This document shows, piece by piece, positions 30,756 to 61,074 of a DNA stretch of 64,000 nt (positions are counted from its first letter, which is position 1; the number at the start of each line of letters is the position of its first letter). The DNA is from an uncultured delta proteobacterium. Its GTDB lineage: Bacteria > Myxococcota_A > Polyangia > Polyangiales > Polyangiaceae. The notes under the pieces are model-generated. The model did not search any database and was not told where the DNA came from. It worked only from the letters and a program-made list of their open reading frames with translations. The stretch covers positions 768,001 through 832,000 of the forward strand of contig CAWJCS010000004.1 of NCBI GenBank assembly GCA_963841435.1, read 5' to 3'. A program made the position numbers and the translations under genes.

Positions 30756-30869
30756 GACGGAGTTCCGACCGGTCAGACGACGGCGAGGCGAAACCGGGCG
30801 CAGGCGCAAGCCTAGGGCAATTCGGCGCTCGGGCGATGCCGAACGCTTGCATCAAGGACGATTGGACGA

Positions 30870-35388: not shown

Positions 35389-35537
35389 GGCGCGCCAGGC
35401 ATCTCCAGGCGGCAGCTCGACCGCGGCATGCGCCCTCGACGGCCCACCTCGCGGCGCTCGCCCACCCCATGCGAGCGCGGGGACGGTTGACCGGTTCGCA
35501 GCGCCCGCGCTAGCTTCCCGGGTGGAGACACCCAACC

Positions 35538-35927
35538 ATGCGCCATCTATGGCTCGTTCTCGCGATCATCGCGTGCGGCCTTCACGGTTGCAAGAAGGAC
35601 GAGCAGCCGCCGCCACAGCCCGCTCCCTACCAAGCCTATCCGCCCGCGCCCACGGCGGCCGCGCCCGCGCCCGCGGCGCCCGCACCCGCGCCTGTGCCAG
35701 CGGCTCCGGCTCCGGCTCCGACCGTCGCGCAGCCCGCGCCTGCGGCGCCCGCGGGCGGGCTGTCGCAGCCTTCGCCGATGGCGCTGCCGTGCACCTCCGA
35801 CGCGAACTGCCTCACGCACCGCTGCAACGCGCAGTTTGGCAAGTGCGCTTGGCCCTGCCAGTCCGACAACGACTGCAACCCCGGCAATCGTTGCATGGCG
35901 GGGGCCTGCGTGCCTGCAGCCCAGTGA
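35538..35927 (+). CDS. Small lipoprotein with Pro/Ala linker and Cys-rich C-terminal domain
   Basis: Lipobox LHGC; CTSDANC...CQSDNDC repeats with 8 Cys. Confidence 0.75.
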   Translation: MRHLWLVLAIIACGLHGCKKDEQPPPQPAPYQAYPPAPTAAAPAPAAPAPAPVPAAPAPAPTVAQPAPAAPAGGLSQPSPMALPCTSDANCLTHRCNAQFGKCAWPCQSDNDCNPGNRCMAGACVPAAQ

Positions 35928-36256
35928 CAGAAGCGGAATACGATGCCCACGCTTTGCCAGAGCTCGCCGCGTTAGTACGCGCCCTCGACGCATTGGACGA
36001 GGACGACTTGGTGCCGGAGCTCGCCGGCGACATCCTGACGATCGAATTTTCCGACGACGTACGGTACGTGGTGAACTCGCACCGCGCCGCCCGGCAGATC
36101 TGGATGGCGGCGGAGCGGAGCGCATGGCACTTCGATTGGTCGGAGAGCGCGGGACGCTGGGTTGCAGCCAAGACCGGCGAAGAGCTCTGGTCGGCCTTGG
36201 AAAGCGTGCTGCAAAAGAAGCTGGGGGCGCCCGTTTCGCTCTCTCGGACCGCTTGA
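35924..36256 (+). CDS. cyaY: Iron donor protein CyaY (frataxin)
   Basis: GDILTIEF...YVVNSHRAARQIWMAA...HF; acidic N-terminal helix; GTG 35924. Confidence 0.88.
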   Translation: MTEAEYDAHALPELAALVRALDALDEDDLVPELAGDILTIEFSDDVRYVVNSHRAARQIWMAAERSAWHFDWSESAGRWVAAKTGEELWSALESVLQKKLGAPVSLSRTA

Positions 36257-38061
36257 TGAAAGGGTTCGATGCCCGAATGACGCGAGCTGGCCTGGGTGAC
36301 GCCCTGCGCCAAGAGCTGCGCTCCGTCACTTATCCGTTGCGCCGCCGCGGGCGCCACCGCTTGGGCGCGCTGGCGAACGATGCCTTGCTCACGCTGGGCA
36401 AGGGACCTCGCTTTCAGGAAACGCTGGCGGAGCAATGGAGGCGCATTCTCGCGCGGAGCGAAAGCGTGCTCGCGAGCATGCCTCCCGCCGGCGCGCCGCG
36501 CGTGCTGTTTGGTGCCATGTTCGGCGGTGGTCTGAACCGCGTGATGGACTCGACGCTCGCGATGGCGCTCCGGCTGCGCGGAGCGACCCCGACCATCCTT
36601 CACTGTGATCGTTCCCTCCCGGCGTGCGAGGTCAATGGGCTCGGCAACTGGCAGCCGTCGCCTGGGCCCTTCGCTCCCCTGCGCTTTCGCCACGGCGCCC
36701 AGTACGCCTGTCAGGCTTGCGCGTTCAAGTTGGACGAGAGCCATGGTGGGATCGGGCTACCGAGCGAGATGCTTTCGAGCCACGTCCGCCCGGGGGATCT
36801 CGAGCTCGGTGCGCGCATCGCCGAGGGAGTGAGCCTCGCCGACTTGCGCCACGTCATGCACCGTGGCGTCTGCGTCGGGGAGCACGCGCACTCGTCGCTG
36901 CTCAAGGCCACCTTGCGCGGCGATCCGATCGACGACGAAAAGACGCGCTTCCTCGCCCGCCGCCTGCTCGCCGCGGCGGTCGTCCTCACCGAGGCCGGGG
37001 AGCGCGTGTTCGAGCGTGTGGCGCCGGATCACTTCGTCGTGCCCGATGGCGTGTATCTGACCGCAGGAACGCTGGCGGAGCTCGCCCTCAGGCGCGGCGT
37101 GCACGTGGTGGTGCACGGCGCGCCTTTCCGCCGGGGGACGATCTGGCTCCACCACGGGCAGAGCTACTTTCGCGCCTTCATCAAGGATCGCAACGACGAC
37201 TGGGCACACCTCCGCATGACCCCCGAGCGGCGGCGCGTCGCCGACGAGTACCTCGCCGCCAAGCATTTCGCGACGCGCGACTACATCGCGTACCACAAGG
37301 GGGCGATTCAAGACGAGGGGGCGATTCGAGCGGAGCTCGGGCTCGACGAGCGCCCGATCGTGAGCGTCTTTACGAACGTGCTCTGGGACGCACAGCTCCA
37401 CTACGACTTCAGCGTTTTCAAGAACATGCTCGAGTGGTTGTTCGATACCATTCGCTTTTACGCTGCGCGCGACGATCTGCAGCTCGTCATCCGCATCCAC
37501 CCGGGCGAAGCGCGTGGTGCGTGGCCCACGAACCAGCCCATCCTGCCGGAGCTCGAACGGGAGTTTCGTTCGCTGCCGCCGCACATCAAGATCGTGTCGC
37601 CCGAGAGCCGCGTGAGCTCGTACGTGCTCGGGACGATGAGCCGCGTGGCGCTCGTCTACGGTGCGCGGCTGGGCGTGGAGCTCGTGATCCTCGGCACCCC
37701 CGTGATCGTGGCGGGCGAAGCGCTGATCCGCGGCCGCGGTTTCACCTACGACCCCGCGTCTCGCGACGAGTACTTCGGCCTGCTTGCCGAGGGTGCCGCC
37801 CTTTCGGCCCCCTCGGCCGAGGTGCGCGAGCGGGCCCGAAAGTGGTATTATTACTATCTGTTTCGCATGATGATGCCGTTCCCGTTCTTCGACGGCGATC
37901 CGGTGCGCGAGCGGGGGCTCTCGTTCTACTCGCTCGACGATCTGCTTCCGGGTCGCTCGCCCGTGCTCGATCGCGTCTGCCTGGGCATCACCGACGGAAC
38001 GACGCCGTTCGAGTGGGACGAGTTCGAAGCGGACGACGCAGCAGTCGGCGCACCGCCCTGA
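36256..38061 (+). CDS. Capsule polysaccharide biosynthesis/modification protein (KpsS/LipB-like)
   Basis: FTNVLWDA, LVIRIHPGE, SSY, GVE...GTPVIVAGEA; Cys-containing N-terminal part. Confidence 0.65.
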   Translation: MKGFDARMTRAGLGDALRQELRSVTYPLRRRGRHRLGALANDALLTLGKGPRFQETLAEQWRRILARSESVLASMPPAGAPRVLFGAMFGGGLNRVMDSTLAMALRLRGATPTILHCDRSLPACEVNGLGNWQPSPGPFAPLRFRHGAQYACQACAFKLDESHGGIGLPSEMLSSHVRPGDLELGARIAEGVSLADLRHVMHRGVCVGEHAHSSLLKATLRGDPIDDEKTRFLARRLLAAAVVLTEAGERVFERVAPDHFVVPDGVYLTAGTLAELALRRGVHVVVHGAPFRRGTIWLHHGQSYFRAFIKDRNDDWAHLRMTPERRRVADEYLAAKHFATRDYIAYHKGAIQDEGAIRAELGLDERPIVSVFTNVLWDAQLHYDFSVFKNMLEWLFDTIRFYAARDDLQLVIRIHPGEARGAWPTNQPILPELEREFRSLPPHIKIVSPESRVSSYVLGTMSRVALVYGARLGVELVILGTPVIVAGEALIRGRGFTYDPASRDEYFGLLAEGAALSAPSAEVRERARKWYYYYLFRMMMPFPFFDGDPVRERGLSFYSLDDLLPGRSPVLDRVCLGITDGTTPFEWDEFEADDAAVGAPP

Positions 38062-38091
38062 GGTCTCGGTGCCCCCTCGGCGCGCACCGGG

Positions 38092-39213
38092 TCACGAGGG
38101 GCCGGGTGCCCCGGCGAGCGCCCGCTCGATGGCGGGCAGGCGCGTGGAGGGGTCACAGAGCTCGCGTGCTCGGCTCGGCCCCGCGGCGCCCAGGCGGCGA
38201 CCGAGCGCGCGATCATGCACGAGCGCGCGCAACGCGTTGGTCAGTGCGTCCTCGTCCGCCGCGAGGAAGCCGACCTCGGGCGTGATGATCTCTCGGGGGC
38301 CGCCCATGTCCATCGTCACGACGGGTAGACCGGCCGCCATGGCCTCGATGAACACCACGCCGAACGGCTCGGCGCCCGCGTTGGGCTGACACTGCACGTC
38401 GGCGGCGGCGAGCAGGCGCGGCACGTCGTTGCGCTGACCGAGGAAGCGCACGCGGCCTGCGATGCCCAGGCTTTCCGCGGTCGCCTTCAGCTGTTGGAAG
38501 TAGGCGTGCTCGACGGGACGCTGCGGACCGCCGACCAGCACGCAGAGCCAGTCGGCTGCGGGTGGCAGTCGCGAGAGCGCCCTCAGGTGGCGCAGCTGGC
38601 CCTTCCAGGGCTCCATGCGGCTCACCTGGATCACGACGGTCGTTTCGGGCCCGGCGCCGAGCTCCGCGCGCAAGCCGGTGCGCTCGGGGTCCGAGAGTCG
38701 CGCTGGTTCCAGGGCCACGGGGTAGAACTCGACCGCCGCCGGAACCCGCCGGAAGATCCGATCGAGCGTGCCCAGGGTGAACTGGCTGTTGCAGATGGCG
38801 AGATCGGTCAGGGTGCGGCCCGCCCAGAGCTCGAAAACGCCGCGGTGGTCGGGGGCGTCGTGGAGCCAGAACACCATGCGCCCAGGCCCGGACTTCGCCG
38901 CCGGTCCGAGCAGCGCCTGCGTCCAGACCGAGTGGCAGACGACCACATCGTAGGCGCCCTCGCGCACCAGCCGCGCCAACCGCCCTCGGGCTCGTGTGAG
39001 GGTCCAGGGCGCGCGGACCCGCACGTGCCCGAGTTGGTGCACGGTGGCGCCGGCTTCCAGAAGCTCCCGTTGTAGGCGACCCTCGAAGCACAACGCGAAT
39101 TCGGAATGCATCGTCGGCGCGACGTCGGCAAAGCGTGCGAGCGTGAGCAGGAACGTCTCGATGCCGCCGAACAGATTGCCCGAGTAAACGTGTAGGACGC
39201 GCAAGGCGGTCAC
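38092..39213 (-). CDS. Glycosyltransferase family 4
   Basis: SGNLFGGIE, SRMEPWKG, EPFGVVFIEAMAAGLPVV; GTG 39213. Confidence 0.9.
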   Translation of the reverse strand: MTALRVLHVYSGNLFGGIETFLLTLARFADVAPTMHSEFALCFEGRLQRELLEAGATVHQLGHVRVRAPWTLTRARGRLARLVREGAYDVVVCHSVWTQALLGPAAKSGPGRMVFWLHDAPDHRGVFELWAGRTLTDLAICNSQFTLGTLDRIFRRVPAAVEFYPVALEPARLSDPERTGLRAELGAGPETTVVIQVSRMEPWKGQLRHLRALSRLPPAADWLCVLVGGPQRPVEHAYFQQLKATAESLGIAGRVRFLGQRNDVPRLLAAADVQCQPNAGAEPFGVVFIEAMAAGLPVVTMDMGGPREIITPEVGFLAADEDALTNALRALVHDRALGRRLGAAGPSRARELCDPSTRLPAIERALAGAPGPS

Positions 39214-39289
39214 GGCTCCCGGCGGCAACGCGCGGCCACCGCCGCCGCGTCGAATCCGCGTTTGCCGTGGCAACCCCAGATTTTGCGCG

Positions 39290-40309
39290 TCATTCGATGC
39301 CCAAGAGCGCCCGTGCGACGGGGTCCTGAGTCCGCTCCGCGAGATGGGACAGCCGAGGGAACCCAAGCAAGCTCTCGCTGAAGCGCTGGAACGGGTACGG
39401 CAAGAGGTTCGCGGAGAACGGATGGCAATACCAGATGCTGATCACCAAGCGCGACTCGACCCCGGGCCGGCTGCCGTAGTGCCAGCAGCGGCAGGTGTCC
39501 GCGTACCAGACCGTTCCGCGCGGTCCGAGCGCCTTCTCGATGACCGGCGCACGACCGAGCACCCGCTCGCCGTGCGCGGCCAACTCGGCGTCGCTCAGTC
39601 GGTTCATGTAGCGGCTGCGCCCTAGCGAATCGTTGATCGCGTCCGAATCGTCGGCCGGCACGACATGCAGCGGGCCCGAGCCCTCGCTCACGTCCGAGGC
39701 GTGCACGAACACGCGCATGTGTCGGTCGGCCGGTTCGTCGAGGTGCGGGTACTGGCTGTTGTAGCTTGCCATGCGGTCGCCCATGTCCGACATGGGCGCG
39801 TCGTTCGGCGAATAGAGCAGCGACACCTCGCGCAGAACCGGTAGCGTTCCGAGGTAACGTGCCGCGGGAGCCACGACATCATGGTCGAGAGCCAGGCTGA
39901 CGAAGGGCCCCCCGAGGTCGAGGTCCGAAGCGTCGAGCGGCACGCGCAGCAAGTAGTCCTTGCTGATGGCGAAACGTCCAAGGCCGCCGTCATCGAGCGC
40001 CGCTTTTAGCACCTCTGTAGAGCGCGAAAGCGCGCGCTGGACGACGGGCAGATCGCCGATGAACTGGTGCGCGAGGGCGTTTCCCTCCGGCACGACGAGT
40101 GAGCGCGTCGGTGCCAGTCTGGCCGCCAGCTCCCGGCGGCGCCGGTGGGCGTCCGAGAACTGCCGCTCCGAGACTTCGCGGTAGCGGCGGGCACGCGCGG
40201 GCGTCACGGTCTGTTGCCCGCCCCACTGTCCGACGTGGAGGGTGCGGGTGAAAAGCCGCCTGAGCCGGAAATCGACGCTGCGTTTGGCTTGCTCGAGAAG
40301 GGATGTCAT
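39290..40309 (-). CDS. PhyH-like Fe(II)/2-oxoglutarate dioxygenase
   Basis: HxD (SQYPHLD), GPLHVVP, GPRGTVWYADTCRCWHYGSR...RL. Confidence 0.65.
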   Translation of the reverse strand: MTSLLEQAKRSVDFRLRRLFTRTLHVGQWGGQQTVTPARARRYREVSERQFSDAHRRRRELAARLAPTRSLVVPEGNALAHQFIGDLPVVQRALSRSTEVLKAALDDGGLGRFAISKDYLLRVPLDASDLDLGGPFVSLALDHDVVAPAARYLGTLPVLREVSLLYSPNDAPMSDMGDRMASYNSQYPHLDEPADRHMRVFVHASDVSEGSGPLHVVPADDSDAINDSLGRSRYMNRLSDAELAAHGERVLGRAPVIEKALGPRGTVWYADTCRCWHYGSRPGVESRLVISIWYCHPFSANLLPYPFQRFSESLLGFPRLSHLAERTQDPVARALLGIE

Positions 40310-40326
40310 GGGGTCGCGTGGCGCGC

Positions 40327-41523
40327 TCAAATGAGACCCGCGCCGCTCAGCACATCGGTGAGCGCGGCGCCGGTCACCACGGCGTCCTTCGAGCTGTAGA
40401 CGGGGGCACCGAAGCCTGGCGAGAGCGGACTGCCCTCGCCGACGTAGGCCGCGGTCTTGACGTCCAGAAAGTTCTCGATGCAAGAGTTGATGACGTAGAG
40501 GCCACGGAACGAGTACGTGCGCGGCAGCTCGGCCTCGTTGATCATGAGCTCGTGGAGCTTCTCGCCTGGACGAATGCCCACGACCTCGACGGGGGGGCGC
40601 TTGCCGAGCTTCTGCATCAAAACCTCGATGAGGTCCGGGATCTTGAAGGCAGGCAAGCGCGGCACGAACACCTCGCCGCCGATGGCGTACTCGAGGGCCC
40701 GCAGGATCAAATCGACGGCTTGCCCCGGCGTGATGATGAAGCGCGTCATGTCGGGGTCGGTCAGCGGCACCGTCTCGCCGTTTTGGATCTTCTTCGAGAA
40801 GAACGGGATGACCGAGCCGGTGCTTTCGAGCACGTTGCCGTAGCGGACGGTCGTGAAAATGGTGCGCTGGTTGCCCTTGTTGTAGTTGCTCTCGCTGAAG
40901 ATGCGTTCCGCGACGAACTTGCACGCCCCGTAGGTGTTGACGGGCGAGCACGCCTTGTCCGTGGAAATGAGGACGGCGCGTTCTACGCCGCTGTACAGGC
41001 AGGCGTTCACCACGTTCAGCGTGCCGACGATGTTGGTCTGGATCGCTTCTTCGACGTTGTACTCGATCATGTCGAGGCGCTTGAGGGCCGCGGCGTGGAT
41101 CACGAGGTCGGCGCCGCGCGTCGCCTTGATCAGCCGCTGATAGTCGCGCACGTCGCCCACCAGCGTTCTGAGGGCGGGGTGGTCGCAGAACTCCTCTTCG
41201 ACGTTGTGGTGCTTCACCTCGTCGCGACTGAAGACGCGAATGCTGTGCGGACGGTATGGCAACAAGGCGCGGATCAGGCTGCGGCCGAGGTAGCCGGTGC
41301 CGCCGGTGATCAGGATCGTCTTGCCCTCGAGCATCTGCCGAAGCCGCGCGGCGTCGTCCGCGGGGGCGATCGTCGCCGTCGCGCCGCGCGACTCCAGCCG
41401 CCGCGAAAGCTCGTCGGCGCGCTGCGTCAGCCGGGCGAGCGCGGAGCGGAGCTCGGTGAGCTCGGCATGATCCTTCTGATCTTCGTGAGACGGGTTGGGT
41501 CGGCTGCTTTGGGACTCGGTCAT
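40327..41523 (-). CDS. UDP-GlcNAc 4,6-dehydratase, PseB/FlaA1-like
   Basis: TGGTGYLG, FSRDEVK, HAAALK, STDKACSPVNTYGACK, RYGNV, MTRF, GIRPGEKLHE. Confidence 0.85.
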   Translation of the reverse strand: MTESQSSRPNPSHEDQKDHAELTELRSALARLTQRADELSRRLESRGATATIAPADDAARLRQMLEGKTILITGGTGYLGRSLIRALLPYRPHSIRVFSRDEVKHHNVEEEFCDHPALRTLVGDVRDYQRLIKATRGADLVIHAAALKRLDMIEYNVEEAIQTNIVGTLNVVNACLYSGVERAVLISTDKACSPVNTYGACKFVAERIFSESNYNKGNQRTIFTTVRYGNVLESTGSVIPFFSKKIQNGETVPLTDPDMTRFIITPGQAVDLILRALEYAIGGEVFVPRLPAFKIPDLIEVLMQKLGKRPPVEVVGIRPGEKLHELMINEAELPRTYSFRGLYVINSCIENFLDVKTAAYVGEGSPLSPGFGAPVYSSKDAVVTGAALTDVLSGAGLI

Positions 41524-41578
41524 GGGTTCAGACGGGCAGGAGAGTATGCGCTCGAGCGTGTGATCGGGCGACGGGCTC

Positions 41579-42604
41579 CTACTCCTTGGGTTCCTTCTGA
41601 GTTGCTCGTGCTTCGTTGATCATTCGACGGAGCTCCGAGACGGTGAGCCACCGGACCGGCGCTTCGCTCGAATAGCGGGGTGGCAGCGCGCCGTCCAATG
41701 CGGGCGTCGTCCCCCCGGGTTTCAGGTAGGGATGGTCACCGAAAGCAGCGAGCCGCGGCGCGTCCCCCTCGTCCCAGAGCAAGTCGAAGAGGCGCTCGCC
41801 TGGTCGCAGGCCCGTCACCTCCACGGGCGGCGGCCCGCTACCGCCACGCTCGAGCCAGACCGCCTCGGAAAGGTCGTCAATCCGGTAGGCGGGGTAGCGC
41901 GGCAGGAGCGTGGCGCCCGGAATTTCGACGGCCAGGTCGGCGCAGAGCCAGACGAGATCGACCGCTTCGGCGAGCGACAACGCGAAGCGCGTCATGCGGC
42001 GATCCGTCACGCGGATCGTGCCATTTTCTGCCAGCTGTCGGAAGAACAACAGCGCCGCCGAACCGCTCGAACCGATCACGTTCGAGCAGCGCAGGCACAC
42101 GAAGCGTGTGGACCCGAAGGTGTCGGCCTCGGCGAACAGTCGCTCCATCAGCGCCTTGGTCAGCCCGTAAACGCTGGCCGGCGAGCACGCCTTGTCCGTC
42201 GAGACGCCGACGACCCGCGCCACACCGGCCTCGACGGCCGCGCGCGCGACGTGAGTCGAGGCCGTGACGTTGGCCCGGACGGCATCGGCGACGTGGCGCT
42301 CGGCGACCGGCACCTGCTTCTCCGCGGCCGCATGGATGAGCGTGTCGATGCGCTCTTCGGCCAGCAACCGCGCCAGCGCCTGCCCGCCCGCAGGCGACCC
42401 CAGGTCGAGCGTGACGGCTCGAATGCCGGAGAGCTCGCGTTCGAGGGCCGCGCACTTTCCGGCATCGCGCGAGACGACCACGAGCCGCGCCGGCCAGCCT
42501 TCGCGATGCGCGCGGCCGAGCAACGCCCGTCCGAGCGATCCCGTGCCTCCCGTCACCAGGATGCGGCCCGAGCGCTGTGTCGAGGGGGAAGCCGGCGGCA
42601 CCAT
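41579..42604 (-). CDS. Second PseB/CapD-like nucleotide-sugar dehydratase
   Basis: TGGTGSLG, HAAAEKQV, STDKACSPASVYGLTK, MTRF, GLRPGE. Confidence 0.8.
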   Translation of the reverse strand: MVPPASPSTQRSGRILVTGGTGSLGRALLGRAHREGWPARLVVVSRDAGKCAALERELSGIRAVTLDLGSPAGGQALARLLAEERIDTLIHAAAEKQVPVAERHVADAVRANVTASTHVARAAVEAGVARVVGVSTDKACSPASVYGLTKALMERLFAEADTFGSTRFVCLRCSNVIGSSGSAALLFFRQLAENGTIRVTDRRMTRFALSLAEAVDLVWLCADLAVEIPGATLLPRYPAYRIDDLSEAVWLERGGSGPPPVEVTGLRPGERLFDLLWDEGDAPRLAAFGDHPYLKPGGTTPALDGALPPRYSSEAPVRWLTVSELRRMINEARATQKEPKE

Positions 42605-42608
42605 GGCG

Positions 42609-43694
42609 TCAGCGCGGCGGGGGAGCCGGGGAGGACGCGCTTGGTAGCGCTAGTGACGCGTCGATGACGCGCTCGGCGCCGCGGCCGTCGACGACGCGTT
42701 GCGCCCTCTCGCTCATCGCTTGCCGCGCGGCAGGTTCGAGTAGCGTGGCGCACGCCCGGGCCACGGCGTCGGCCGTGAGATCCAGTGGGCCTCCGGCGTG
42801 CAACGAGGCCCCCGTGGCCGTGAACGAGGTCGCCCACGGGACCTGGTGCGGCACGGTCGCGACGGTGACGGCAGGCGTGCCGCAGGCCGCCGCCTCGTAC
42901 TTGGTCACACCCGCCGAGACGACGGCAAGATCGGCCACCCGAAGCAGCGGGAAAATGGACGGAAGGCTGGTGTGCACTCGTATCGCATTGGAGCGGGGGA
43001 GCACGCCGGCATCCTTTAGCGCCGTCACGTCCTCCATGCCCGCGAGCAGGTCGATCTCGAGCCCGTCGCCGCACGCCGCGACCAGTCCGGCGAGCACCGG
43101 CGCGAGCAGCGTGGGCGCGACGACGCCGCCGCCCAGCGCGACGACCGCGCGCCCGGGAGCGCCGTCGTGTCGCCGAGACGGCGCGCCGGCGTATTCGCTG
43201 CCGAGAATCGCGTACGCGGGGCCCAGCAAAAACCGTGGGGCGAAGCGCTGGTCGTAGTCTTCGGGTCTCGCATCGCCCGCCGGGTTCACGAGCACCGCGT
43301 GCGGGAAGCGCGCCCGCGTCAAGTCGTCGATCACGATCGACGGTGCCAGGCGGGCGATTTCGCCGAGCAGCTCGGCGTACGCCCGGAGATCCCGCGTCTC
43401 GTCCGTATTGGAGAGGTCGACGACCGAAAGCTCGACACCCCGACGTGTTGCGATGTCTCGGCAGAGCCGAGCGTCGTCCGCGGGGCGGGCCCCGGGATCG
43501 AGCCCCACGAACTCGCAGCCGGCGCTCTCCATGCGCTGCCGGATCCGCGCGTCGTGAGTGCGGGCCACGGCGATCACGTGCGCGCCGCGCGCCAGGAGTC
43601 GTTGGGTCACGGCGAGCGCCCGAGTGACGTTTCCCATGCCGAGCTTCGCTGACCCGTCGGCGCGTGCGAGGACCACCTTGGGAAACGAGGTCAC
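42609..43694 (-). CDS. PseG/SpsG-like UDP-sugar hydrolase (GT-B fold)
   Basis: RADGSAKLGMGNVTRALA, IVIDD, LLGPAYAIL, ALGG, AGVTKYEAAACGTP, VDGRGAERV. Confidence 0.78.
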   Translation of the reverse strand: MTSFPKVVLARADGSAKLGMGNVTRALAVTQRLLARGAHVIAVARTHDARIRQRMESAGCEFVGLDPGARPADDARLCRDIATRRGVELSVVDLSNTDETRDLRAYAELLGEIARLAPSIVIDDLTRARFPHAVLVNPAGDARPEDYDQRFAPRFLLGPAYAILGSEYAGAPSRRHDGAPGRAVVALGGGVVAPTLLAPVLAGLVAACGDGLEIDLLAGMEDVTALKDAGVLPRSNAIRVHTSLPSIFPLLRVADLAVVSAGVTKYEAAACGTPAVTVATVPHQVPWATSFTATGASLHAGGPLDLTADAVARACATLLEPAARQAMSERAQRVVDGRGAERVIDASLALPSASSPAPPPR

Positions 43695-44449
43695 GGGTAG
43701 CCCCGCTGGCGGACGTGCTCGTTGATGGCGACGAGGTCCGGGCGCGCGTCGAAGAGCGCGGTGAGAGCCGCAGCGTCCGGCAGCGCCTCCCCCGGCCGAA
43801 ATAGCGCGTCGTAGAGCGCGGCGATGAGCTCGTAGTCCTCTTTCGTGTCCAGACTGAGCCGCGGGTGATGCGCGCCGAGGACGGGCCCGGTGCTCACACG
43901 CTCGACCCGGAAGTCGTGGCCCCGTGCGTAGAGGTAGGGCATGACGTGGGTCCGGTCGGACGCATCGACGGCTTCGCGCGCCGCGCGCTCGAGCGCCCCG
44001 GCGGACGCCACCTCGACCTCGAAGCCGTGGATGCACGAGGTATCGTCGGGCCAGTTGGCGCTCATGTTCGACGTGTAGTCGGCGTCGCTCGCGAGGTGGG
44101 CGAGAACGACGCGATCGACCAGCGACGGCAGGAGCAGCGGCTTGTCCGCGGGCATGCGCACCACGCAGTCGCCCGCGGCACTCTGCAGCGCACCGACGAA
44201 CCGCCCGAGCACGTCGTCGAGCGAGCCGCGATGAAGGGCAACGCCCCAGCGTGTGCAGGCAGCGGCGATGGCGTCGTCGCTCGTCTCCACGCTGGTCGCG
44301 ACGACGACGGCGCCCACGCTCTTACAGCGCTTCAAACGCTCGACGATGTGCCACAGAACCGGCCGGCCGGCCAATGGAAGCAGAACCTTACCGGGAAGCC
44401 GCTTGGACGACATGCGGGCTTGGATGACGGCAACGACTCTCGGCGGCAC
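43691..44449 (-). CDS. SpsF/PseF-like cytidylyltransferase
   Basis: IQARMSSKRLPGKVL, RGSLDDVLGRF, RLSLDTKED. Confidence 0.85.
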   Translation of the reverse strand: MPPRVVAVIQARMSSKRLPGKVLLPLAGRPVLWHIVERLKRCKSVGAVVVATSVETSDDAIAAACTRWGVALHRGSLDDVLGRFVGALQSAAGDCVVRMPADKPLLLPSLVDRVVLAHLASDADYTSNMSANWPDDTSCIHGFEVEVASAGALERAAREAVDASDRTHVMPYLYARGHDFRVERVSTGPVLGAHHPRLSLDTKEDYELIAALYDALFRPGEALPDAAALTALFDARPDLVAINEHVRQRGYP

Positions 44450-44705
44450 GGTGATGCTCCCGAGCGCGTCGCCCGGGCCCGGCAGGCTACATACCACGAG
44501 CGCCCAGGGGCCCCTCGGGTCCGCCGGGCGCGCTCGACGCGGGGCGCGGCCCATGGCAGAAGCGCCCGCCTAGGCCGAGCTAACGGCTCGCGTTCAGCCC
44601 GCCGAGACCGAGGCGAAAAGGGTCGCCCGCCGGCGCTACGAGTCGCGAGCTTCTCGCCCGGCCGGGGCACGATAGAGCTGCGGAGAACACATGAGCTTCA
44701 ACCTG

Positions 44706-46000
44706 CATGCCCTCGTAGCCGGCGTAGGCGTGGTGGCGCTCCTGGTTGATGTCGAGCCAGGGCGTGCGGGTCTTCAGCGCGACGAACTGGGTGCGCCCGC
44801 CGGACATCAGAATGTCGGCCTCGCCGCCCGCCAGCATGCGCCACAGCTCCTTCGGCGGGATTCGTCGACCATTGGTGCATCGTCGCCCATGATCTGGCGG
44901 ATGCGGTCCTTGTCCTCGTCTGTCGACTTGCGGACCGAGGTCGAGACGACGGTCATGCCGAGTTCCTGCAGGGCACCGATCATCGCCCACGACTTGACGC
45001 CGCCGGTGTAAAGCAGCACCCGCCGGCCTTCGAGGCGGGCGCGGTAGGGGCCGAGGGCGGTCGTCGCCTTCAGCGCTTCCTCCGCGGTCACCGCCTCGGC
45101 GCGGGCGAGCAGGTCCGCCGGCGCGCCGCGCTCGACCAGCATGCGGGCGAGGGTCAAAGCGAGGCCGTCGTCCCGCCGATGCCGTAGAACGAGCCCTCGA
45201 AGAACGGGATGCCGAAGCGCGCCTCCAACTTGCGGGCGAGCGAGACCAGCGCCTGGCTGCAGACGACCATGTTGACGCGCGCCCGATGCGCGGTGCAGAC
45301 GTCGGCGTAGCGGGCGTCGCCGGTGATCGAGGCGAGGATGCGGATGCCGATGCGAGCGAGGAGCGGGCGGATTTGCCCGATCTCGCCGGCGACGTTGTAT
45401 TCGCCCAAGAGGTTGATGTCGAAGGGGGTGGAGGTCTCCGGCTCGCGGGTGCCGATGACGTGGTCGAGCAGGGCGTCGCCGGCGAGCTTGTTGCCGAAGT
45501 TCTTTGATCCGGCGAACCCCGGCGCCGTTCACCGGGATGACCGGCGTCGAGAGCCGCTTCGCCGCTTCCGCGCACACTGCGTCGACGTGCTCGCCAGTCA
45601 GGGCCGGCACGCAGGTGACGTAGACGAAGACGGCGGGCGGCCGGAAGCGCTCGATGATCTCCTTGATCGCCCGGTAGAGCTTCTTCTCGGCGCCGTGGAT
45701 GATGTCGAGCTCGGAAAGGTCGGTGGTGAAGCCGGACCGGTAGAGGGTGGGGCCGGTGGAGCCGACGTTGCGGCTGTTCCAGCTGTTGCCTTCGCAGGCG
45801 ATCGGGCCGTGGACGAGATGTGCCGCATCGGTGATCGGCTGCAGGGCGATCTTGGCGCCGTCGAAGGCACAGCCGCCGGCGGCGGCGCCGGGGGTGAGCG
45901 TCTTCGCCGAGCAGCCTGCTTTCCGCTCCTTCGCCGTCTTCGCCTGATTGACGGCGCAGCCGGGCTCGTCGAACGCCTTCGTCAGCTTGTCGGTCAGCAT
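44706..46000 (-). CDS. nifE: Nitrogenase FeMo-cofactor scaffold NifE, 3'-truncated at the junction, with indels
   Basis: PGAAAGGCAFDGA, HGPIACEGNSW, GEYNVAGE, YTGGVKSW, PWLDINQERHHAYAGYEGM, then an abrupt loss of similarity. Confidence 0.93.
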
Positions 46001-46102
46001 CCGGCCCTCCCGATAGGCTCCGTCGGCCGAGGTAGGATCCCCGCGTGACGACGCCGTCCGGGCGCGAGAGGAGAGGGACGGACGGCGCGCACGCGGAGAC
46101 GC

Positions 46103-46119
46103 GGAGCCATGACGGCTCC
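46103..46119 (-). terminator. Short hairpin directly after the nifK stop (possible terminator or processing site)
   Basis: GGAGCC-5 nt-GGCTCC; no U-tract. Confidence 0.35.
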
Positions 46120-46234
46120 TAGCGGGTGAGATCGAACGAGATGTCGGTCTCGCCCGCCGTGTCGGTTGCCCGATCGAGATCATCGAAGATGCGGTCGAGG
46201 ATGCGGACCAGCACCTGCAGTCCCCCCTGGTAGC

Positions 46235-46235
<1 letters not shown>
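46119..46235 (-). pseudogene. nifK: C-terminal remnant (38 codons) of nitrogenase MoFe beta subunit
   Basis: Manual translation GYQGGLQVLVRILDRIFDDLDRATDTAGETDISFDLTR*, the typical NifK C-terminus, located just before nifE. Confidence 0.88.
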
Positions 46236-47299
<1,064 letters not shown>

Positions 47300-47353
47300 T
47301 TACACTCCTCTCGCTTGGGAAACGGGTGGGCGTGACGCCCTTGCCGGTTGAAT

Positions 47354-47369
47354 TGCAAGGCCTGTGCCA
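47354..47369 (-). promoter_or_regulatory. Sigma54 (-24/-12) promoter of nifH
   Basis: TGGCAC-AGGCC-TTGCA on the minus strand, consensus match. Confidence 0.9.
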
Positions 47370-47452
47370 CCGCCTCGCCAGCGCAAAAGCGGCTCGTATT
47401 AGCAACAGTTAGCGCCTGGAACCCGGGCTGTTGCCGGCGCCGCCGCAGCGGC

Positions 47453-47497
47453 TGTTGCGAAGCCGACAATCCGCGACACTCTGTCCGAACCGGTACA
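47453..47497. promoter_or_regulatory. Two NifA upstream activator sequences for nifH
   Basis: TGT-N10-ACA at 47453-47468 and 47482-47497. Confidence 0.85.
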
Positions 47498-47628
47498 GCG
47501 CCGGACGCCGGGGAGCTGCGGGCCGGCTCCGGTTTCGGTCCGCCCGCAGCGGCTCGTTCGCGCCCGCAGAGTTGGCCCGGCGCTTGCTTTAAGCGCGGTC
47601 AGGGGTTTCGGAAAAAACGGGCGTGACG

Positions 47629-48465
47629 ATGGAAACGACGACGGAAGCAGCGGGCGTATGGCGGCGGGGTGGCGGCACCAACCTGATCGGGGTGCCCGTC
47701 CGCCGTGTTCGCCAGCACCGCCTTCAATGCCGATGCTCCGCCCGTGCACATCGCCGGCACCCGCGAGATGAACCGCGACCTGTTCCGCATGCTCGCCGGC
47801 GCCGGGTCGATCGCCGAGGCCGCCGACATTTTCTCCGCCTACACGGCGCGATGTTCGGCCTCGCCGCCGAGCCGCGGCGCGGATAAGCCCGAAGAAGGCG
47901 CGGCCGCCCGGCGCTATCGCACCGGCTATCTGCGGCTGCTGCGCGGCTGGGCGTACGATTCCAACAGCCCGGAGGGGGCGGTGCTGAAGGGCTGGGTGGA
48001 AAGCCGGTTCGGCCTGATGCCGACCTATCACAAGCAGCCGCTCACCCATTTCACCGTCGCCGGCCTGGGCCAGATACGTCGAGGAGAAGATCGGCAGCCG
48101 CTTCCATAACAACGCCATCACGAGCCAGCTCGACCTTCTCTACGAATACGCCCAGTGGGTGCGGAGGCCGGTTCTATCCGGAGGAGCGGCTGCTCCGGCT
48201 CTATCGCGGCGTCAACGATTTCGACGAGCATCCGATCGTCGAGCGGCGGACGAAGCGGCAGGTGGTGGTCCGCCTCAACAACCTCGTCTCGTTCACCTGC
48301 GAGCGGGACATGGCGACGTGGTTCGGCGACTACATCCTCGAAGCCGATGTTCCGGCGGTGAAGGTTCTCTTCTTCAACGCGTTACTCCCCCGGCATGCGC
48401 TCAAGGGAGAAGGCGAGGTGCTGGTGATCGGCGGCGACTACCTCGTCACCGCATCCTGCTACTGA
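47629..48465 (+). CDS. draT: NAD(+)-dinitrogenase-reductase ADP-ribosyltransferase (several indels)
   Basis: YLRLLRGWAYDSNSPEGAVLKGWVESRFGL, LYRGVND, LNNLVSFT, LKGEGEVLVIGG; divergent from nifH. Confidence 0.92.
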
Positions 48466-48478
48466 ACGTATTGGCCGA

Positions 48479-49417
48479 ATGACGTCGCCCCGTCCTCTCG
48501 TTTGCGACCGATGCCGGGATTTCCGACCGGGCGCTCGGCGCCTATCTGGGCTTTGCCATCGGCGATGCCCTCGGCGCCACCGTCGAATTCATGACGCCGG
48601 CGGAGATCGCCCGCCAGTACGGCGTGCATACGCGGATGATCGGCGGCGGCTGGCTGAAGCTGGAAGCGGGTCAGGTCACCGACGATACCGAAATGACGCT
48701 CTGCGTCGGCCGCGCTATCGTGCGGTGCCGGCGGCTGGGATCTGAAAGCCGTCTGCGAGGAATTCGCCCAATGGCTGAAGCGGGTGCCGGTCGACGTCGG
48801 CAATACCGTCCGTCGCGGCATCCGCCGGTATATCGTCGACGGGACGATGGCGGCGCCGCCCAGTGACGGCGACGGCGGCAACGGCGCCTGCATGCGCAAT
48901 CTGCCGGTCGCGCTGGCGACGCTCGGCCGTCCGGACGATTTCCAAGACGTGGACGCTGCAGCAGTGCCACGTCACCCACAATCACCCGCTGTCGGACGCG
49001 GCGGCGCTCGCTCTCGGCCGGATGGTCCAGCGTCTGGTGCTGGGCGGCGGCGTCACCGCCTGCCGGGAAGAGGCGAAGGCGCTCGTTGCGGCGCATCCGG
49101 GCTTCCGCTTCGAGCGCTATCGCGGGCCGTGCTCCGCCTATATCGTCGATACCGTCCGCACCGTCCTCAAAAACTACTTTCTCACCGACTCGATCCGTAC
49201 CTGCGTCACCGAGACGGTGAACATGGGAGGCGACGCCGACACCGCCGGCGCCTTTGCCGGGATGCTGGCCGGCGCCACCTACGGGGCCGCCACATTGCCG
49301 GAAGGCTGGCTCCGGCGGCTCAATCCCGCCATCGGCAAGGAGATCTCGGCGCAGGTTCCGCAGATCCTCGCCATCGCCGACCGGCGGCGGCGGGCGCCAT
49401 GCGGCAAAGATTCTTGA
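48479..49417 (+). CDS. draG: ADP-ribosyl-dinitrogenase reductase glycohydrolase (several indels)
   Basis: GDALGATVEF (alternate frame), IGGGWLKLEAGQVTDDTEM, PVDVGNTVRRGI, GNGACMRNLP, THNHPLSD, GGDADT. Confidence 0.92.
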
Positions 49418-49471
49418 TGGACGCCGGTGAAGTAATCCGGGAGCGATGGGAACGACTTGTGTTGTCTGCTG

Positions 49472-49681
49472 CTAGGTGTTGAGGCGGAAGCCGACTTTGA
49501 GGACGACCTGGTAGGAGCTGACCTTGCCGTTCTCGACCTGGCCGCGGAGTTCCTGAACCTCAAACCAGGTCAGGTTGTCAGGGTTGAACCCGCCGCTGCG
49601 ATGGCGTTGTCGATGGCGGCCGAAATGCTGGTCCGGCGAAGTCCCGACGAGTTCGACTTTTTTGAAGACGCTGTTCTGCAT
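49472..49681 (-). CDS. Dodecin (flavin-binding protein)
   Basis: FKKVELVGTS...WFEVQELRG...YQVVLKVGFRL, about 69 aa; compensating indels in the middle. Confidence 0.85.
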   Translation of the reverse strand: MQNSVFKKVELVGTSPDQHFGRHRQRHRSGGFNPDNLTWFEVQELRGQVENGKVSSYQVVLKVGFRLNT

Positions 49682-49827
49682 GGGGTTATTCCTTGGCCGC
49701 TGAGACAGGGGTTTCCGACACATGGCGGGATGCGCAGCCGAGGTCAATGGCCGCAGCCGAAAGCACCTGAAGGCACTGCAAGGTCACAGAGGCCGCCAGC
49801 GGGCGGCACCGCCTCGCCGGGCGCCTC

Positions 49828-50038
49828 TCAGTCGCCCGAAATGCGGCGCGCCTCGACCGTCAACGGCAGCCGGGTGTCGGCGGCCAGTGTCCGGCATCGC
49901 GAAGCGCCAGCCGTTCGCGAGTTCGATCCAGCCACCCCACAACTCCGATCGTTCGCGGGCGACGACCGGCTGTTCCAGATCCTTCTTGGCGACGTAGAGC
50001 GAATACTGCTCGCCGCGTCGCGCCAGGGTCACCTTCAT
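49828..50038 (-). CDS. nifT: NifT/FixU
   Basis: MKVTL...YVAKKDLEQPVV...WGGWIELANGW...RLPLTVEARR (indel near the end). Confidence 0.88.
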
Positions 50039-50366
50039 CCTGCGCCTCCGCCGCCGCTCGTTTCCGACCGGTTCCAGTTCGCCCTGGCGCATGCCGACGA
50101 TCCGGCCGCGTTCGTAGAAGTCGACGGCATAGATGTAGTAGCGCTGCAGAAACTCGCCGATCGACTGGATATAGCCGACGTCACCGGCATCGATCAGCAC
50201 CGTGCCCCGCGCCAGACCGGGATAGGTGCCGTCGTTGCGGACGCTGTGCAGCGCCCGGACCTTCTGACCCGGCTCGAACGTCGGCGGATCGAAGGTCTCG
50301 ATCGGCGCCGGCGTCACCGCAGCCGCCGCCGGCGGCGGTGACGGCATCGATTGTCGCGCGCGTCAT
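50035..50366 (-). CDS. nifZ: NifZ
   Basis: PTFEPGQKVRA..VRNDGTYPG...GDVGYIQSIGEFLQRYYIYAVDF...VGMR; ends are approximate because of indels. Confidence 0.88.
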
Positions 50367-50555
50367 CCACGGACGATGGTGTCGGCCGGGCAGGACGCCA
50401 CACACTGAGGCTCGTCGAATTGGCCGCTTGCATTCGGTACAACGGGCCGCGTTGATCACGCAGACGTCGCCCTTCATGCTGATTGCGTTATTGGGGCATC
50501 CGAACTCGCACGAACCGCAGCCGGTGCAACCGGATGGATCGATCTTGTAGGCCAT
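50363..50555 (-). CDS. fdxN: 2[4Fe-4S] ferredoxin, FdxN-type
   Basis: MAYKI..CTGCGSCEFGCPNNAI...CTEC..FDEPQCVASCP (one indel); follows nifB. Confidence 0.85.
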
Positions 50556-50651
50556 CGACGATACTCCAATCGTCTGGTCGTCCGGCCAGCGGCCGGACGA
50601 CGGGGTCGAGGCCCGGCCTTGAGCGGACGGGCCGGAATGTCCGGCTCGGAC

Positions 50652-52165
50652 TCAAGCGCAGCGTCCGGCCGTCCGCGCCGAAGTCGTCGCGAACACCGCC
50701 GCGAGATGGTGGGCGATCGCGGTCTCGATGTATTCGAAGGCGTAGGCCTCGCTTACGATGATCCCGGCCGCGGCCAGCGCATCCGACGGACAGCGCCCGA
50801 TTTTCGCGCACAGGACGATCGAGACCCCTCGAGGGCGGCGATCGTTGCCGCCAGCACATCATCGTCGCCATCGCCGCCCGGCAGTAGCGCTCGATCCGGC
50901 GATGGCCGACGAAGCGGATGCCGTCGGCATCGGCGGCGAAGATCTTGAATTCATCGGCATGGCCGAAGTGCTGGTTGACCCGGCCGCCGCCCTTGCTGCA
51001 GGCCGCGATCAGGACAGGCTCGGCAAGCCCGAGGCTGCGGACGACGGCGGCGGCATCGGCGGCCTCGTCGCCCTTGTCTTCGCGTTCGCGGGCGACGACG
51101 GCGCGATAGGCCGTCCGTTCGGCCTCGCTCGCACGGACGGCTTCGGCATCGGTCTCCGGCAGCGATCGCAGTGCAAACTCGCTTCCGCGGTCCTCGCCGA
51201 GCAGGCCGACGGCATCGGCCCGGCACTGCCGGCAATGCCGCATCAGCCGGGCATCGCCACCAAGCCGGTCCTGCGCCGCCTGCAGCTCCGCCGGCGTCGG
51301 CCCGCGCTGGCCGGTGAGGCCGTAGTGCGGTGCCGTGCCGGGGATCGGAGATCAGCGGCATGATGTTGTGCAGGAAGGCGCCGCGACGGCGGACCTCGGC
51401 GTTGACCTCGGCGAGATGCAGATCGTTGATGCCGGGGATCAGGACCGAGTTGACCTTGACCAGCACGCCGCGCCGCGACCAGCGCGTCGAGGCCGGCGCA
51501 GCTGCCGGTCGCGCAGCACCGTCGCCGCCTCCAGCCCGGTCAGCCGGCGATGGCTCAAAGAACACCCACGGCGTAGATGCGGGCGCCGATTTCGGGGTCG
51601 ATGGCGTTGATGGTGATGGTGACGTGATCGATGCCGAGCTCGCTGATCGTCGTCGACGTGATCGGGCAGGGCGAGGCCGTTGGTCGAGAGACAGAGCTTG
51701 AGATCGGGCAGTTCCTCGCGCAGACCGGCGGAAGGTGGCGAAGGTGTGCCGGTGATCGGCGAGCGCGTCGCCCGGTCCGGCGATGCCGACGACCGACAGT
51801 TCCGGCATCCGTTTCGGCGACGGCCAGCACCTTCCTGACGCCGTCGCTCCGGCGACAGCCGCTCGCTGACGACACCCGGGCGGCTCTCGTTGGCGCAGTC
51901 GTACTTGCGGTTGCAGTAGTGGCACTGGATGTTGCACGCCGGCGCCACCGCCACGTGCATGCGGGCGAAGTAGTGGTGGGCGTCCTCGTTGTAGCAGGGG
52001 TGGTCCTCGATGCGGGCGAGGATGTCGGGCGGCAACGTCTGCGCGGGTCGGCGCCTGATCGCAGCCCTGGGAGGACGGGCAGCCGGCGCGTTTCGGACTC
52101 GCCGCTGCCGCGGCGGTGGACGTGCGCTGGAGCAGATCGTCGAGCGAGATGACCGTGCGGCCCAC
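50652..52165 (-). CDS. nifB: Radical SAM FeMo-cofactor biosynthesis protein NifB with C-terminal NifX-like domain (many indels)
   Basis: [78 protein letters not shown]. Confidence 0.95.
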
Positions 52166-52226
52166 CGGCGTCTCCTTTTGCGTTCCGTTCGACGCAGCGA
52201 CGGTCGCGGCGTCGGCGGATCATCTG

Positions 52227-52242
52227 TGCAAGGCGCGGGCCA
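52227..52242 (-). promoter_or_regulatory. Sigma54 promoter of nifB
   Basis: TGGCCC-GCGCC-TTGCA on the minus strand. Confidence 0.82.
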
Positions 52243-52301
52243 GCGGCACATCCTATTGAATTAAGCGGAAGAAATTGGGAGATCACCGGGTCCGCGGCGT
52301 C

Positions 52302-52336
52302 TGTCCGGTCCGCGACAGCCTGTCGGAAAGCCGACA
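52302..52336. promoter_or_regulatory. Two NifA upstream activator sequences for nifB
   Basis: TGT-N10-ACA at 52302-52317 and 52321-52336 (TGTCGG-AAAG-CCGACA palindrome). Confidence 0.85.
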
Positions 52337-52346
52337 GCCGCAGGCC

Positions 52347-54066
<1,720 letters not shown>

Positions 54067-54191
54067 CGCCGGCCTCGCAGAAGGATTACAGTTCGCCGGA
54101 ATGGCAGGGTTCTATCAACTCTCTGGGCGAAGCGCGGCCGGTCTCGTCTGCCATGACGCGCCGGTTTATCTGAAAAGTCACCTCCTATTGG

Positions 54192-54207
54192 AGCAAAAGA
54201 CGTGCCA
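54192..54207 (-). promoter_or_regulatory. Sigma54 promoter upstream of nifA
   Basis: TGGCAC-GTCTT-TTGCT on the minus strand. Confidence 0.82.
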
Positions 54208-54469
54208 TGCGGCGCCGTTCCAGTTTCGTCCCGTCCGGCAGTGAGCTTAGCCGGTTGCTGTGGAAAAGAAGCCGGAGATCGCGCTGATCAAAGCATGGCC
54301 ACTGGCGTCCGCCGTGCCCAAGCGTTGCGCATGCGCAGCGATGGAGCGAACGGCGGCGGGCACCTGCCGATCAAGACCGGCGCGGCCTTACCCTCAACTG
54401 GGGGTAGTGGCGCCACTCTGGCGCGACAACGAGAACCGGCGAAGTCGCCCCGATCAGGAAAGAGTCAGA

Positions 54470-55479
54470 TCAACGGGCGTTGCCGGCGGCGACCGCGGCA
54501 GCGATCACATCCTCGCCGATCCGCGCCCGGAACGGCTCCCAAGCCGGAAGGAAGGCCGCTCGCCACGCTTCCAGTTGCACCGGCGTCGGCTCGATGATGC
54601 GGGCGTCGCCGGCTTCGGCGATGATCCGCCGGTCGCTCACCGCCTGTTCGGCGGCGATGCGGCGCTCCTCGACGCTGACGTCGGCGATGATCCGCTCCAG
54701 CCCTTCGCGGACATCCGGCGGCAGGCCGTCCCAGAACGTCTGACTGGTGACCAGCATGTAGCCGAGGAAGCTATGGTTCGTTTCGGTGAAGTTGCGCACC
54801 AAGGGGTACATGCCGAATGAATAGATGTTCGACCAGGAGTTCTCGAGGCCGTTAATCAGCCCGCGCTTCAGAGCGTGCTTGATCTGCCCAAACGGCATCT
54901 GCAGGGCAATGACGCCGATGTTGGCGTACTGCTCCTGGAAGATGGCCGAATTCTCGACGCGGAAGGTCATGCCGTGGGCGTCATCCGGCAAGAACAGCGG
55001 TTCGGTCGGCGCCGATCACCCGCATGCCGCTGTCCCAGTAGGCGAGGCCCTTGAGGTCGCGCGTTCTTCATCGAATCGAGCAGGCCACGGCCGATGTCCG
55101 TATCCTGGAAGCGATGGACATGCTCCACATCCTTGAACAGGAACGGCAGCTCGAACACTTGCGTTGCCGGCGAATAGCGCTGGAACAGGGTGAACGATGG
55201 CGCCGCCAGTTCGACGTCGCCGAGGATCAGGGCGAGCAGGACCTCTTCATCGGTGAAGCGGCGCGATTCGGGATAGACGTCGACGCGGACGCGGCCGGGA
55301 AACGCCGCCTCCACGCGTTCCTTAAGGAGGTTGGCGCCGACCCCTTTCGGGGCATTTTCGGACACAACATGGGCGAAGCGGATGACGATCGGCTCCTTGG
55401 GCGGCTCCTCGGCGCGGCCGGCGACGGGTGAAGCCAGCGCCGACAGGAGGATCGCAATTGCGAACAGCAACCGTGGCAT
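54470..55479 (-). CDS. dctP: TRAP substrate-binding protein DctP, second copy (indels near 55010-55060)
   Basis: IRFAHVVSENAPKG, FELPFLF, GLENSWSNIY, TETNHSFLGY. Confidence 0.85.
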
Positions 55480-55535
55480 GAACGGCTCCCCTCCGTATCA
55501 GTTGTTTGTTGTCGTCCCGGTGAATGCGGGTGCCT

Positions 55536-58627
<3,092 letters not shown>

Positions 58628-58858
58628 TTACAAGGAAAGCGCGTTTTTTGGAAGACGAGAAACGTTCGGTGTGCGTCGCTGCAAGCAGGACGCGAGATCG
58701 ATGTGCGGACGGCCGCCGTTTCTTTCCCGAGTCTCCGGACCGCCGTAGACGACCATGGCATAGGCGGTCGGATCGTCGACGGCAACATCCTCCTTCCGCC
58801 GTGGGCAGGCAAGCTCCTCCTTCCGGACCCATAAAAACCCGCGCAGCACGATCTGAGC

Positions 58859-58891
58859 TTGACGCGGATTCAATAGACGATAAAGTTTATC
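58859..58891 (+). promoter_or_regulatory. Sigma70-like promoter overlapped by a palindrome, upstream of hyp-rrf2
   Basis: TTGACG-16 nt-TAAAGT; GATAAA-G-TTTATC palindrome at 58879-58891. Confidence 0.45.
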
Positions 58892-58934
58892 TACAAAGTA
58901 GCGATTCAAGGTGCGGACAGCCACGGAGACAGCG

Positions 58935-59348: not shown

Positions 59349-59478
59349 AGTCGGTTGGTGGAGGGGAGCAGCTGCGGGTCGTCCCTACGGCGGCGCTGCC
59401 CGCAGTTCCTTCTTCGCCCGCCGTTGACGCGGAACGATATTCGTGGATAGGCTATTATGTCGATCGAAGCGCTGGGTA

Positions 59479-59931: not shown

Positions 59932-59947
59932 TTTTTTTTCGCGATAA

Positions 59948-61069: not shown

Positions 61070-61074
61070 CGATC

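Follow-up and report, generated by a model that had tools for sequence, protein, structure and literature searches.

A Polyangiaceae-like to Rhodospirillales-like junction beside truncated nif genes in a Polyangiaceae genome assembly, most probably the seam of an inter-genome chimeric contig

The window, that is, the whole stretch of DNA analysed here, comprises 64,000 nucleotides (C4:768,001-832,000) of G000, the genome under study, which amounts to 7.78 Mb in six contigs of 68.5-68.9% G+C without Ns, and has marker-based quality estimates of 95.04 (completeness) and 2.71 (contamination). The recovery of 7.8 Mb in only six contigs, together with the broken reading frames described below, suggests that the genome originates from a long-read assembly. 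Contig C4 is 909,933 bp long, and at window position 44,705 (C4:812,705) its sequence changes within a few bases from Polyangiaceae-like to Rhodospirillales-like DNA; the site as a whole occupies C4:812,560-812,720, about 97 kb before the contig terminus. Two metagenome-derived genomes served as references: G064, a Polyangiaceae MAG, for the left side of the window, and G041, a Rhodospirillales MAG of 3.3 Mb, for the right side, of which 200 kb (500-700 kb) were used in comparisons.

The left part of the window (1-44,554) is Polyangiaceae (Myxococcota) chromosome, as judged by Pfam domains, orthologues in G064 and composition, and it encodes Ser/Thr kinases, an amidase and a glycan-biosynthesis cluster. 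The kinases which an earlier note, made from the letters alone, had placed on this side are accounted for by two Pkinase-domain proteins; these and the amidase are followed by the long run of glycan-synthesis genes (Pfam), the last of which, on the minus strand at about 43,691-44,554, encodes a cytidylyltransferase of the CTP_transf_3 family. The 150 bp upstream of this gene (44,555-44,704; 69% G+C) are the last stretch without a match to G041. Thirteen ORF products of G064 match the left part at 59-84% amino acid identity and together span window positions -554 to 32,858. At the DNA level, 44 of 46 congeners lack any counterpart of the final 6.7 kb before the join (38,001-44,704); the matches in the other two are weak (67%) and confined to the first 1.2 kb of this stretch. 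A paralogous copy of 38,113-41,734 (72-90% nucleotide identity) lies elsewhere in the genome, at C5:889,943-894,371. Sparse conservation next to the join, together with the existence of that copy, would fit a reading in which the right block is the true neighbour and the left 44.7 kb, or the last few kilobases of it (the glycan cluster), the misplaced piece. We regard this as scarcely credible, given that bulk-genome composition continues right up to the join, that G064 orthologues cover positions -554 to 32,858, and that Polyangiaceae-like DNA makes up 813 kb of the contig and the other kind 97 kb.

To the right, the first gene encountered is nifE (44,706-46,000, minus strand), which lacks its last 29 codons and contains three frame switches, such that both the TIGR01283 profile and a tblastn search with NifE of G041 recover it in four pieces. 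The profile pieces lie in different frames and cover positions 4-448 of 459, the best of them scoring 212.6 bits against a cut-off of 505.1. The previous observation that NifE breaks off at ...HAYAGYEGM near 44706, with nifN missing, is borne out: homology to NifE ceases with the codon that ends at 44,706, the G041 protein continues for 29 residues beyond this point and is followed by nifN, and no nifN match exists in the whole of G000. Thus neither a NifE above the TIGR01283 cut-off nor a downstream nifN is present in the window, and G041 has both; its nifH, nifD, nifK, nifE and nifN all exceed their NCBIfam cut-offs. Further to the right lie nifH (46,385-47,374, minus strand; TIGR01287, 362.7 bits), which is divided by one frame switch into two tblastn pieces with NifH of G041, and draT and draG (47,690-49,384, plus strand; Pfam DRAT and ADP_ribosyl_GH), with two frame switches each. 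The remainder of the Rhodospirillales-like block within the window (49,475-64,000, NCBIfam) comprises dodecin, nifT, nifB, nifA, a TRAP transporter, an Rrf2 regulator, a sulfate ABC transporter, gltA and the 3' end of gltX. The right-side gltA is in three frame-shifted pieces, and the right-side GltX is intact at 474 aa. Scans with NCBIfam and Pfam thereby recover the draTG, NifA and gltX-gltA genes that had been read on this side from the letters alone.

Between nifE and nifH, adjacent blastn blocks skip 2.9 kb of G041 and leave a nifDK remnant (46,119-46,354, minus strand), in which a 5' stub of nifD (46,354-46,238; 39 codons) is butted to a 3' stub of nifK (46,235-46,119; its last 39 codons). 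The two stubs are joined out of frame at about 46,236-46,238, and the approximately 2.9 kb missing between them correspond to G041:C2:534,221-537,128, where both nifD and nifK are full. The break is blunt, with microhomology of at most 1 nt, and lies 1.5 kb from the join at 44,705. A search of the whole of G000 found nothing of nifD or nifK beyond the stubs, and the nif genes of this genome are confined to the C4 tail. The deletion could represent a real, non-fixing alphaproteobacterial variant, or could be part of the same aberrant read as the join; we infer that a single aberrant template or read accounts better than two independent biological events for a pair of blunt breaks only 1.5 kb apart in a region where the consensus is poor.

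Nif-like DNA occurs in one of the 40 relatives searched, a congener of the genome under study (G002; 510 contigs, contamination about 8), where nifH-, nifE- and nifB-like loci on small contigs (C344:3,429-4,310, C116:4,000-5,228 and C344:7,839-8,944) share 77, 72 and 70% nucleotide identity, respectively, with the right side of the window. This DNA may be contamination there too, or may reflect genuine nif genes in the genus; it is irrelevant to the join, since all nif genes of G000 lie within the tail.

The join itself can be placed at 44,703-44,708, with a breakpoint at about 44,705, on the basis of blastn homology to G041, which starts at 44,705, and of the last NifE-homologous codon. With window positions 44,001-64,000 as the query, matches to G041 are long and collinear and the first matching query base is 705 (window 44,705); positions 44,001-44,704 have no match in the whole G041 genome. 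Nor is there residual homology to the 3' end of G041 nifE in the 100 nt left of the break, where the observed local score was reached by 128 of 500 shuffles. The absence of an integrase, transposase, tRNA or target duplication at the break, as originally proposed, is upheld by family scans, a tRNA scan and a repeat search, all of which came back empty: no integrase or transposase family was matched among 21 ORF pieces (NCBIfam) and 17 (Pfam) around and right of the join, a set that takes in part of the small ORFs; no tRNA gene was found in window positions 30,000-64,000; and no repeat of at least 20 nt from 44,300-45,000 recurs elsewhere in G000 beyond marginal E-values. A false join mediated by a repeat was considered and rejected, there being no repeat at the junction. 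No Ns interrupt the assembly at the join, and no second junction back to host DNA was found: the block reaches the contig end, and neither composition nor similarity to the 500-700 kb portion of G041 reveals a continuation on the other five contigs.

The change in composition coincides with the start of homology. Using a 5-mer Markov LLR in which the alphaproteobacterial model was derived from G041 only and the bulk model from the other G000 contigs, we found values to be negative in every 1-kb window from 30,001 to 44,001, with the sign flipping between the windows that start at 44,001 and 45,001. The LLR was positive in 97 of 97 windows of 1 kb in the tail, compared with 1.7% of 760 upstream windows of C4. 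Among 1,554 windows of 5 kb genome-wide, only 21 exceeded +5 nats/kb; 18 of these make up the contiguous C4 tail, and the other three are two low-GC islands and the rRNA operon region. The earlier note had proposed comparing tetranucleotide profiles on the two sides, and these differ in the same sense, with the tail resembling G041 (r=0.976) rather than the G000 bulk (r=0.811), and the 97 kb left of the break resembling the bulk (r=0.99). By way of calibration, 76 other 97-kb segments of G000 had a median correlation with the bulk of r=0.990, and only two fell below the tail, each of which holds an island of approximately 10 kb with about 53% G+C. The compositional switch at the join is therefore far beyond chance, and the foreign block is single, terminal and not ameliorated in composition. 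The sign change of the 5-mer LLR between the windows starting at 44,001 and 45,001 and the onset of G041 homology at 44,705 together confirm the abrupt junction between two kinds of DNA that had initially been described.

Other compositional irregularities occur in the genome. The strongest outliers after the C4 tail are two stretches of approximately 10 kb with 52-54% G+C (C2:850,000-860,000 and C6:1,690,000-1,700,000; long-ORF cover 0.13 and 0.23), both of which are bordered on each side by DNA of 68-70% G+C. The contig ends at C1:1-10,000, C5:1,830,000-1,846,843 and C6:1-10,000 have a lower G+C (0.64-0.67) and a long-ORF cover of 0.20-0.43, and are not alphaproteobacterium-like in the 5-mer test.

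The lineage of the right side is equally distinct. The best locus for the right-side GltX belongs to the Rhodospirillales MAG G041 (83% identity), and among the best 80 loci, 76 have titles with alphaproteobacterial names, four are titled only Proteobacteria or Pseudomonadota, and none is titled Myxococcota. The genome contains an intact native gltX (C2:934,381-935,781), the product of which has its top matches, of up to 82%, in Polyangiaceae MAGs, as well as an intact native gltA (C4:659,188-660,411), both in addition to the right-side copies. A phylogeny across the junction had been suggested as a check, and in a tree of 38 GltX sequences the two copies fall in alphaproteobacterial and Polyangiaceae clades, respectively. 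The right copy is sister to that of a Rhodospirillales MAG (84% identity, SH-aLRT 100) within a 19-row alphaproteobacterial clade, although NCBI's ranks give two of its rows a different class label; the native copy falls within a five-row Polyangiaceae clade (SH-aLRT 99), and 1.13 changes per site separate the two clades. The sulfate-binding protein (59,963-61,066) was also considered as a taxonomic marker and dropped, as its best 80 loci are 58-70% identical and are distributed over many phyla.

Synteny extends this affinity to the entire tail. A blastn comparison aligns C4:812,705-909,863, the 97 kb that close the contig, with G041:C2:532,694-630,118 in 26 blocks of at least 300 bp and 68-89% identity, 23 of which are collinear and three, all short, inverted or displaced. 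Orthologues of genes of the block in G041 include gltB (glutamate synthase large subunit), polA, dnaX, PDH E1-alpha and E2, lipA, motA, pckG and moeA. Judged by this gene content and order, the right block is ordinary core chromosome of a Rhodospirillales bacterium, and not an island. The rest of G000 yielded only the rRNA operon and paralogue-level matches to the 200 kb of G041, and the block is absent from the 40 relatives searched, among which one MAG gave the best match, 0.9 kb of nifH at 77%. Window positions 54,077-59,477 form the only long right-side stretch in the window that is not collinear with G041; TRAP-transporter genes within it (dctP and dctM pieces) match G041 in inverted orientation at about 71%. 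The two sides accordingly map to different lineages, Rhodospirillales on the right and Polyangiaceae on the left, by the GltX tree, by best matches and by synteny, and not to the single lineage that would speak against chimerism altogether.

The two sides differ, too, in the quality of their consensus. We counted frame switches by tblastn with the stop-to-stop ORF products of G041, retaining those proteins whose best match reached 55% identity. In the tail, 34 of 52 proteins contained at least one switch, with 76 switches over 19,236 aligned residues (1.32 per kb). The same procedure with the ORFs of G064 found two of 13 proteins on the left to be broken, with four switches over 5,771 residues (0.23 per kb); this control is small, and its reference, being more distant (59-84% amino acid identity), may detect switches less well. 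The density is thus 5.7 times greater on the right (binomial P=1.2e-5), where consensus quality stands as a proxy for coverage, and the denser indels that had been seen on this side from the letters are now quantified as 76 switches in 52 proteins versus four in 13. A net extra base accounts for 61 of the 76 tail switches and a net missing base for 15 (P=1e-7). At the nucleotide level few of the gaps relative to G041 fall in homopolymers; the nucleotide-level indel spectrum was otherwise set aside, as most gaps are alignment noise at around 80% identity. Of the left-side switches, one lies in a histidine-kinase/response-regulator gene (3,025-4,781) and three lie in a single gene at 10,245-11,174; the host part, and the assembly as a whole, is not error-free. 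A region of about 110 kb at C5:820,000-930,000, host-like in composition, has a long-ORF cover of 0.17-0.71 per 10 kb compared with a genome median of 0.87, and may be poorly polished or strain-variable.

One public sequencing run matched the junction region, with 6% of sampled words, and provided 86 short contigs on 34,706-54,705. Among the eight listed of 132 pieces from this run, none bridges 44,705, which has no bearing on spanning reads either way; five lie to the left with no differences, and three lie to the right with 3-6 differences in approximately 150 nt. All seven rows of differing letters in this comparison fall right of the join. The only indel reported is one letter at 48,726 that is absent from the short-read contig, and this is the position of a draG frame switch, where matches to G041 end at 48,725 (frame 2) and resume at 48,727 (frame 3). 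Therefore, at least that break is absent from an independent sequence, with the qualification that it is a single data point, that the run may have some connection with the source sample, and that its alphaproteobacterium may be another strain (96-98% identity). The right side, in short, has the look of a second organism's sequence, derived from poor coverage and rich in consensus errors.

These data also bear on whether the block might be an old transfer in decay, its frame breaks, nifDK deletion and truncated nifE all being real, pseudogenizing mutations in foreign DNA that became fixed in the myxobacterium. Such a history would explain why damage of three sorts, namely frame switches, the loss of 2.9 kb and the truncation of nifE, occurs together in a block whose genes would all be dispensable to a host with copies of its own. 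Pseudogene decay in bacteria is deletion-biased, yet 61 of the 76 switches are net single-base gains; gain-biased indels are a product of some long-read chemistries at low depth. Further, the proteins between the breaks remain 58-95% identical to those of G041, the block has retained the composition of the donor order (r=0.976), the one break that can be compared, at 48,726, is lacking from independent short-read sequence, and the block is terminal on its contig. Decay in situ is, in our estimation, so improbable as to be nearly negligible.

A more serious competitor is that at least 97 kb of Rhodospirillales chromosome, taken for example from lysed prey, really were integrated, and very recently, by illegitimate recombination, with the frame breaks being sequencing errors of a locally poorly covered region. 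Myxobacteria lyse other bacteria, the join is assembled without Ns and without any repeat at the site that could have misled an assembler, and unameliorated composition would be compatible with a very recent event. Nonetheless, coverage and consensus quality should be uniform along a single replicon, and switches are 5.7 times denser on the right from the first gene on. Moreover, the block is core chromosome that duplicates the host's own gltX and gltA; it is terminal, and the other five contigs contain no second junction; the break is devoid of recombinase, tRNA and repeat; and none of the 40 relatives searched contains the block. On balance we consider a recent integration very unlikely. The fuller proposition, that a predatory Polyangiaceae line integrated at least 97 kb of Rhodospirillales chromosome including its nif genes by illegitimate recombination, is very unlikely indeed; if true, it would offer a snapshot of the uptake of prey chromosome across phyla before amelioration.

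The two sides of the join derive from different lineages; the foreign one consists of core chromosome, is terminal, and has a far worse consensus. We consider it very probable that the join is an assembly artefact, namely an inter-genome chimeric contig, and hence, with high probability, that the feature exists in the file and has no biological counterpart. Approximately 813 kb of Polyangiaceae chromosome would then have been fused, with no repeat in common, to one end of a 97-kb chromosomal fragment from a second organism; this organism, a member of the order Rhodospirillales, would be much less well covered than the Polyangiaceae of the bin. The physical cause was most likely a chimeric long read, or the false extension of a contig end with a weakly supported native path; the join lies at the edge of the glycan-synthesis cluster, where the native path would plausibly be weakly supported. 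Because no repeat is shared by the two sides, a chimeric read is the probable cause. Several observations sit less comfortably with an artefact: the left side has frame switches of its own, there is no repeat to account for an assembler joining the two sides, the marker-based quality figures (95.04 and 2.71) look clean, and low long-ORF cover is found also in Polyangiaceae-like parts such as C5:820-930 kb, such that consensus quality varies within the host. The earlier note had favoured a chimeric read or misassembly and warned against attributing nif to the myxobacterium, and this reading agrees with all the tests run and is supported by the terminal collinear block, the duplicate housekeeping genes, the unameliorated composition and the worse consensus. 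The nif, draTG, nifA, gltA and gltX genes right of the join most likely belong to the Rhodospirillales organism and not to the myxobacterium.

Taken at face value, the contig would place nifH, nifE, nifB, nifA and draTG in a Polyangiaceae myxobacterium, and would imply a spectacular cross-phylum transfer of housekeeping genes. The value of the present analysis lies mainly in data hygiene: C4 should be split at 812,705, the approximately 97 kb from there to the contig end should be cut away before comparative genomics, surveys of horizontal transfer or nif censuses, and the nif genes should be reassigned to a second, low-abundance Rhodospirillales organism. More broadly, a bin of 95% completeness and 2.7% contamination in six contigs can hide a foreign tail of 97 kb.

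Three known systems provide a context for these findings. Relative to the nifHDKEN/draTG/nifA set of Rhodospirillales, the block has the gene order and sequence found in G041, with draT and draG divergent from nifH; it differs in that the window is without most of nifD and nifK, has a nifE that is 29 codons short and no nifN, and contains frame switches in every gene. The block resembles a horizontally acquired genomic island or integrative element in that its composition and phylogenetic affinity are foreign and host DNA adjoins it. Here, however, recombinase, tRNA and att repeat are missing and the junction is single; instead of accessory genes, the cargo is collinear core chromosome in donor order (polA, dnaX, gltX, gltA, gltB and PDH genes). 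Of the features that define such elements, a border recombinase, a tRNA or att site with direct repeats, two junctions and accessory cargo are all lacking, with the search for direct repeats pertaining to the one end of the block that can be seen.

The closest likeness is to interspecies chimeric contigs in MAGs, which have already been described in bins that pass marker-based checks, according to the available parts of three sources (10.64898/2026.10.15.759294, PMC9661791, PMC10174551); marker-based estimates of quality miss foreign sequence that is joined within a contig, as the available part of one of them relates (10.64898/2026.10.15.759294). In the present case, as in those, foreign sequence resides in one contig, the bin passes marker checks, and the switch is abrupt in both taxonomy and composition. 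Four signs of a chimeric contig are present: an abrupt change in composition, two lineages, two kinds of gltX and gltA, and a step in consensus quality (a proxy for coverage). The present example differs from those described in that the foreign sequence is 97 kb long, stems from another phylum and is error-rich, whereas the figures cited in the available part of the first source (10.64898/2026.10.15.759294) relate to short-read assemblies.
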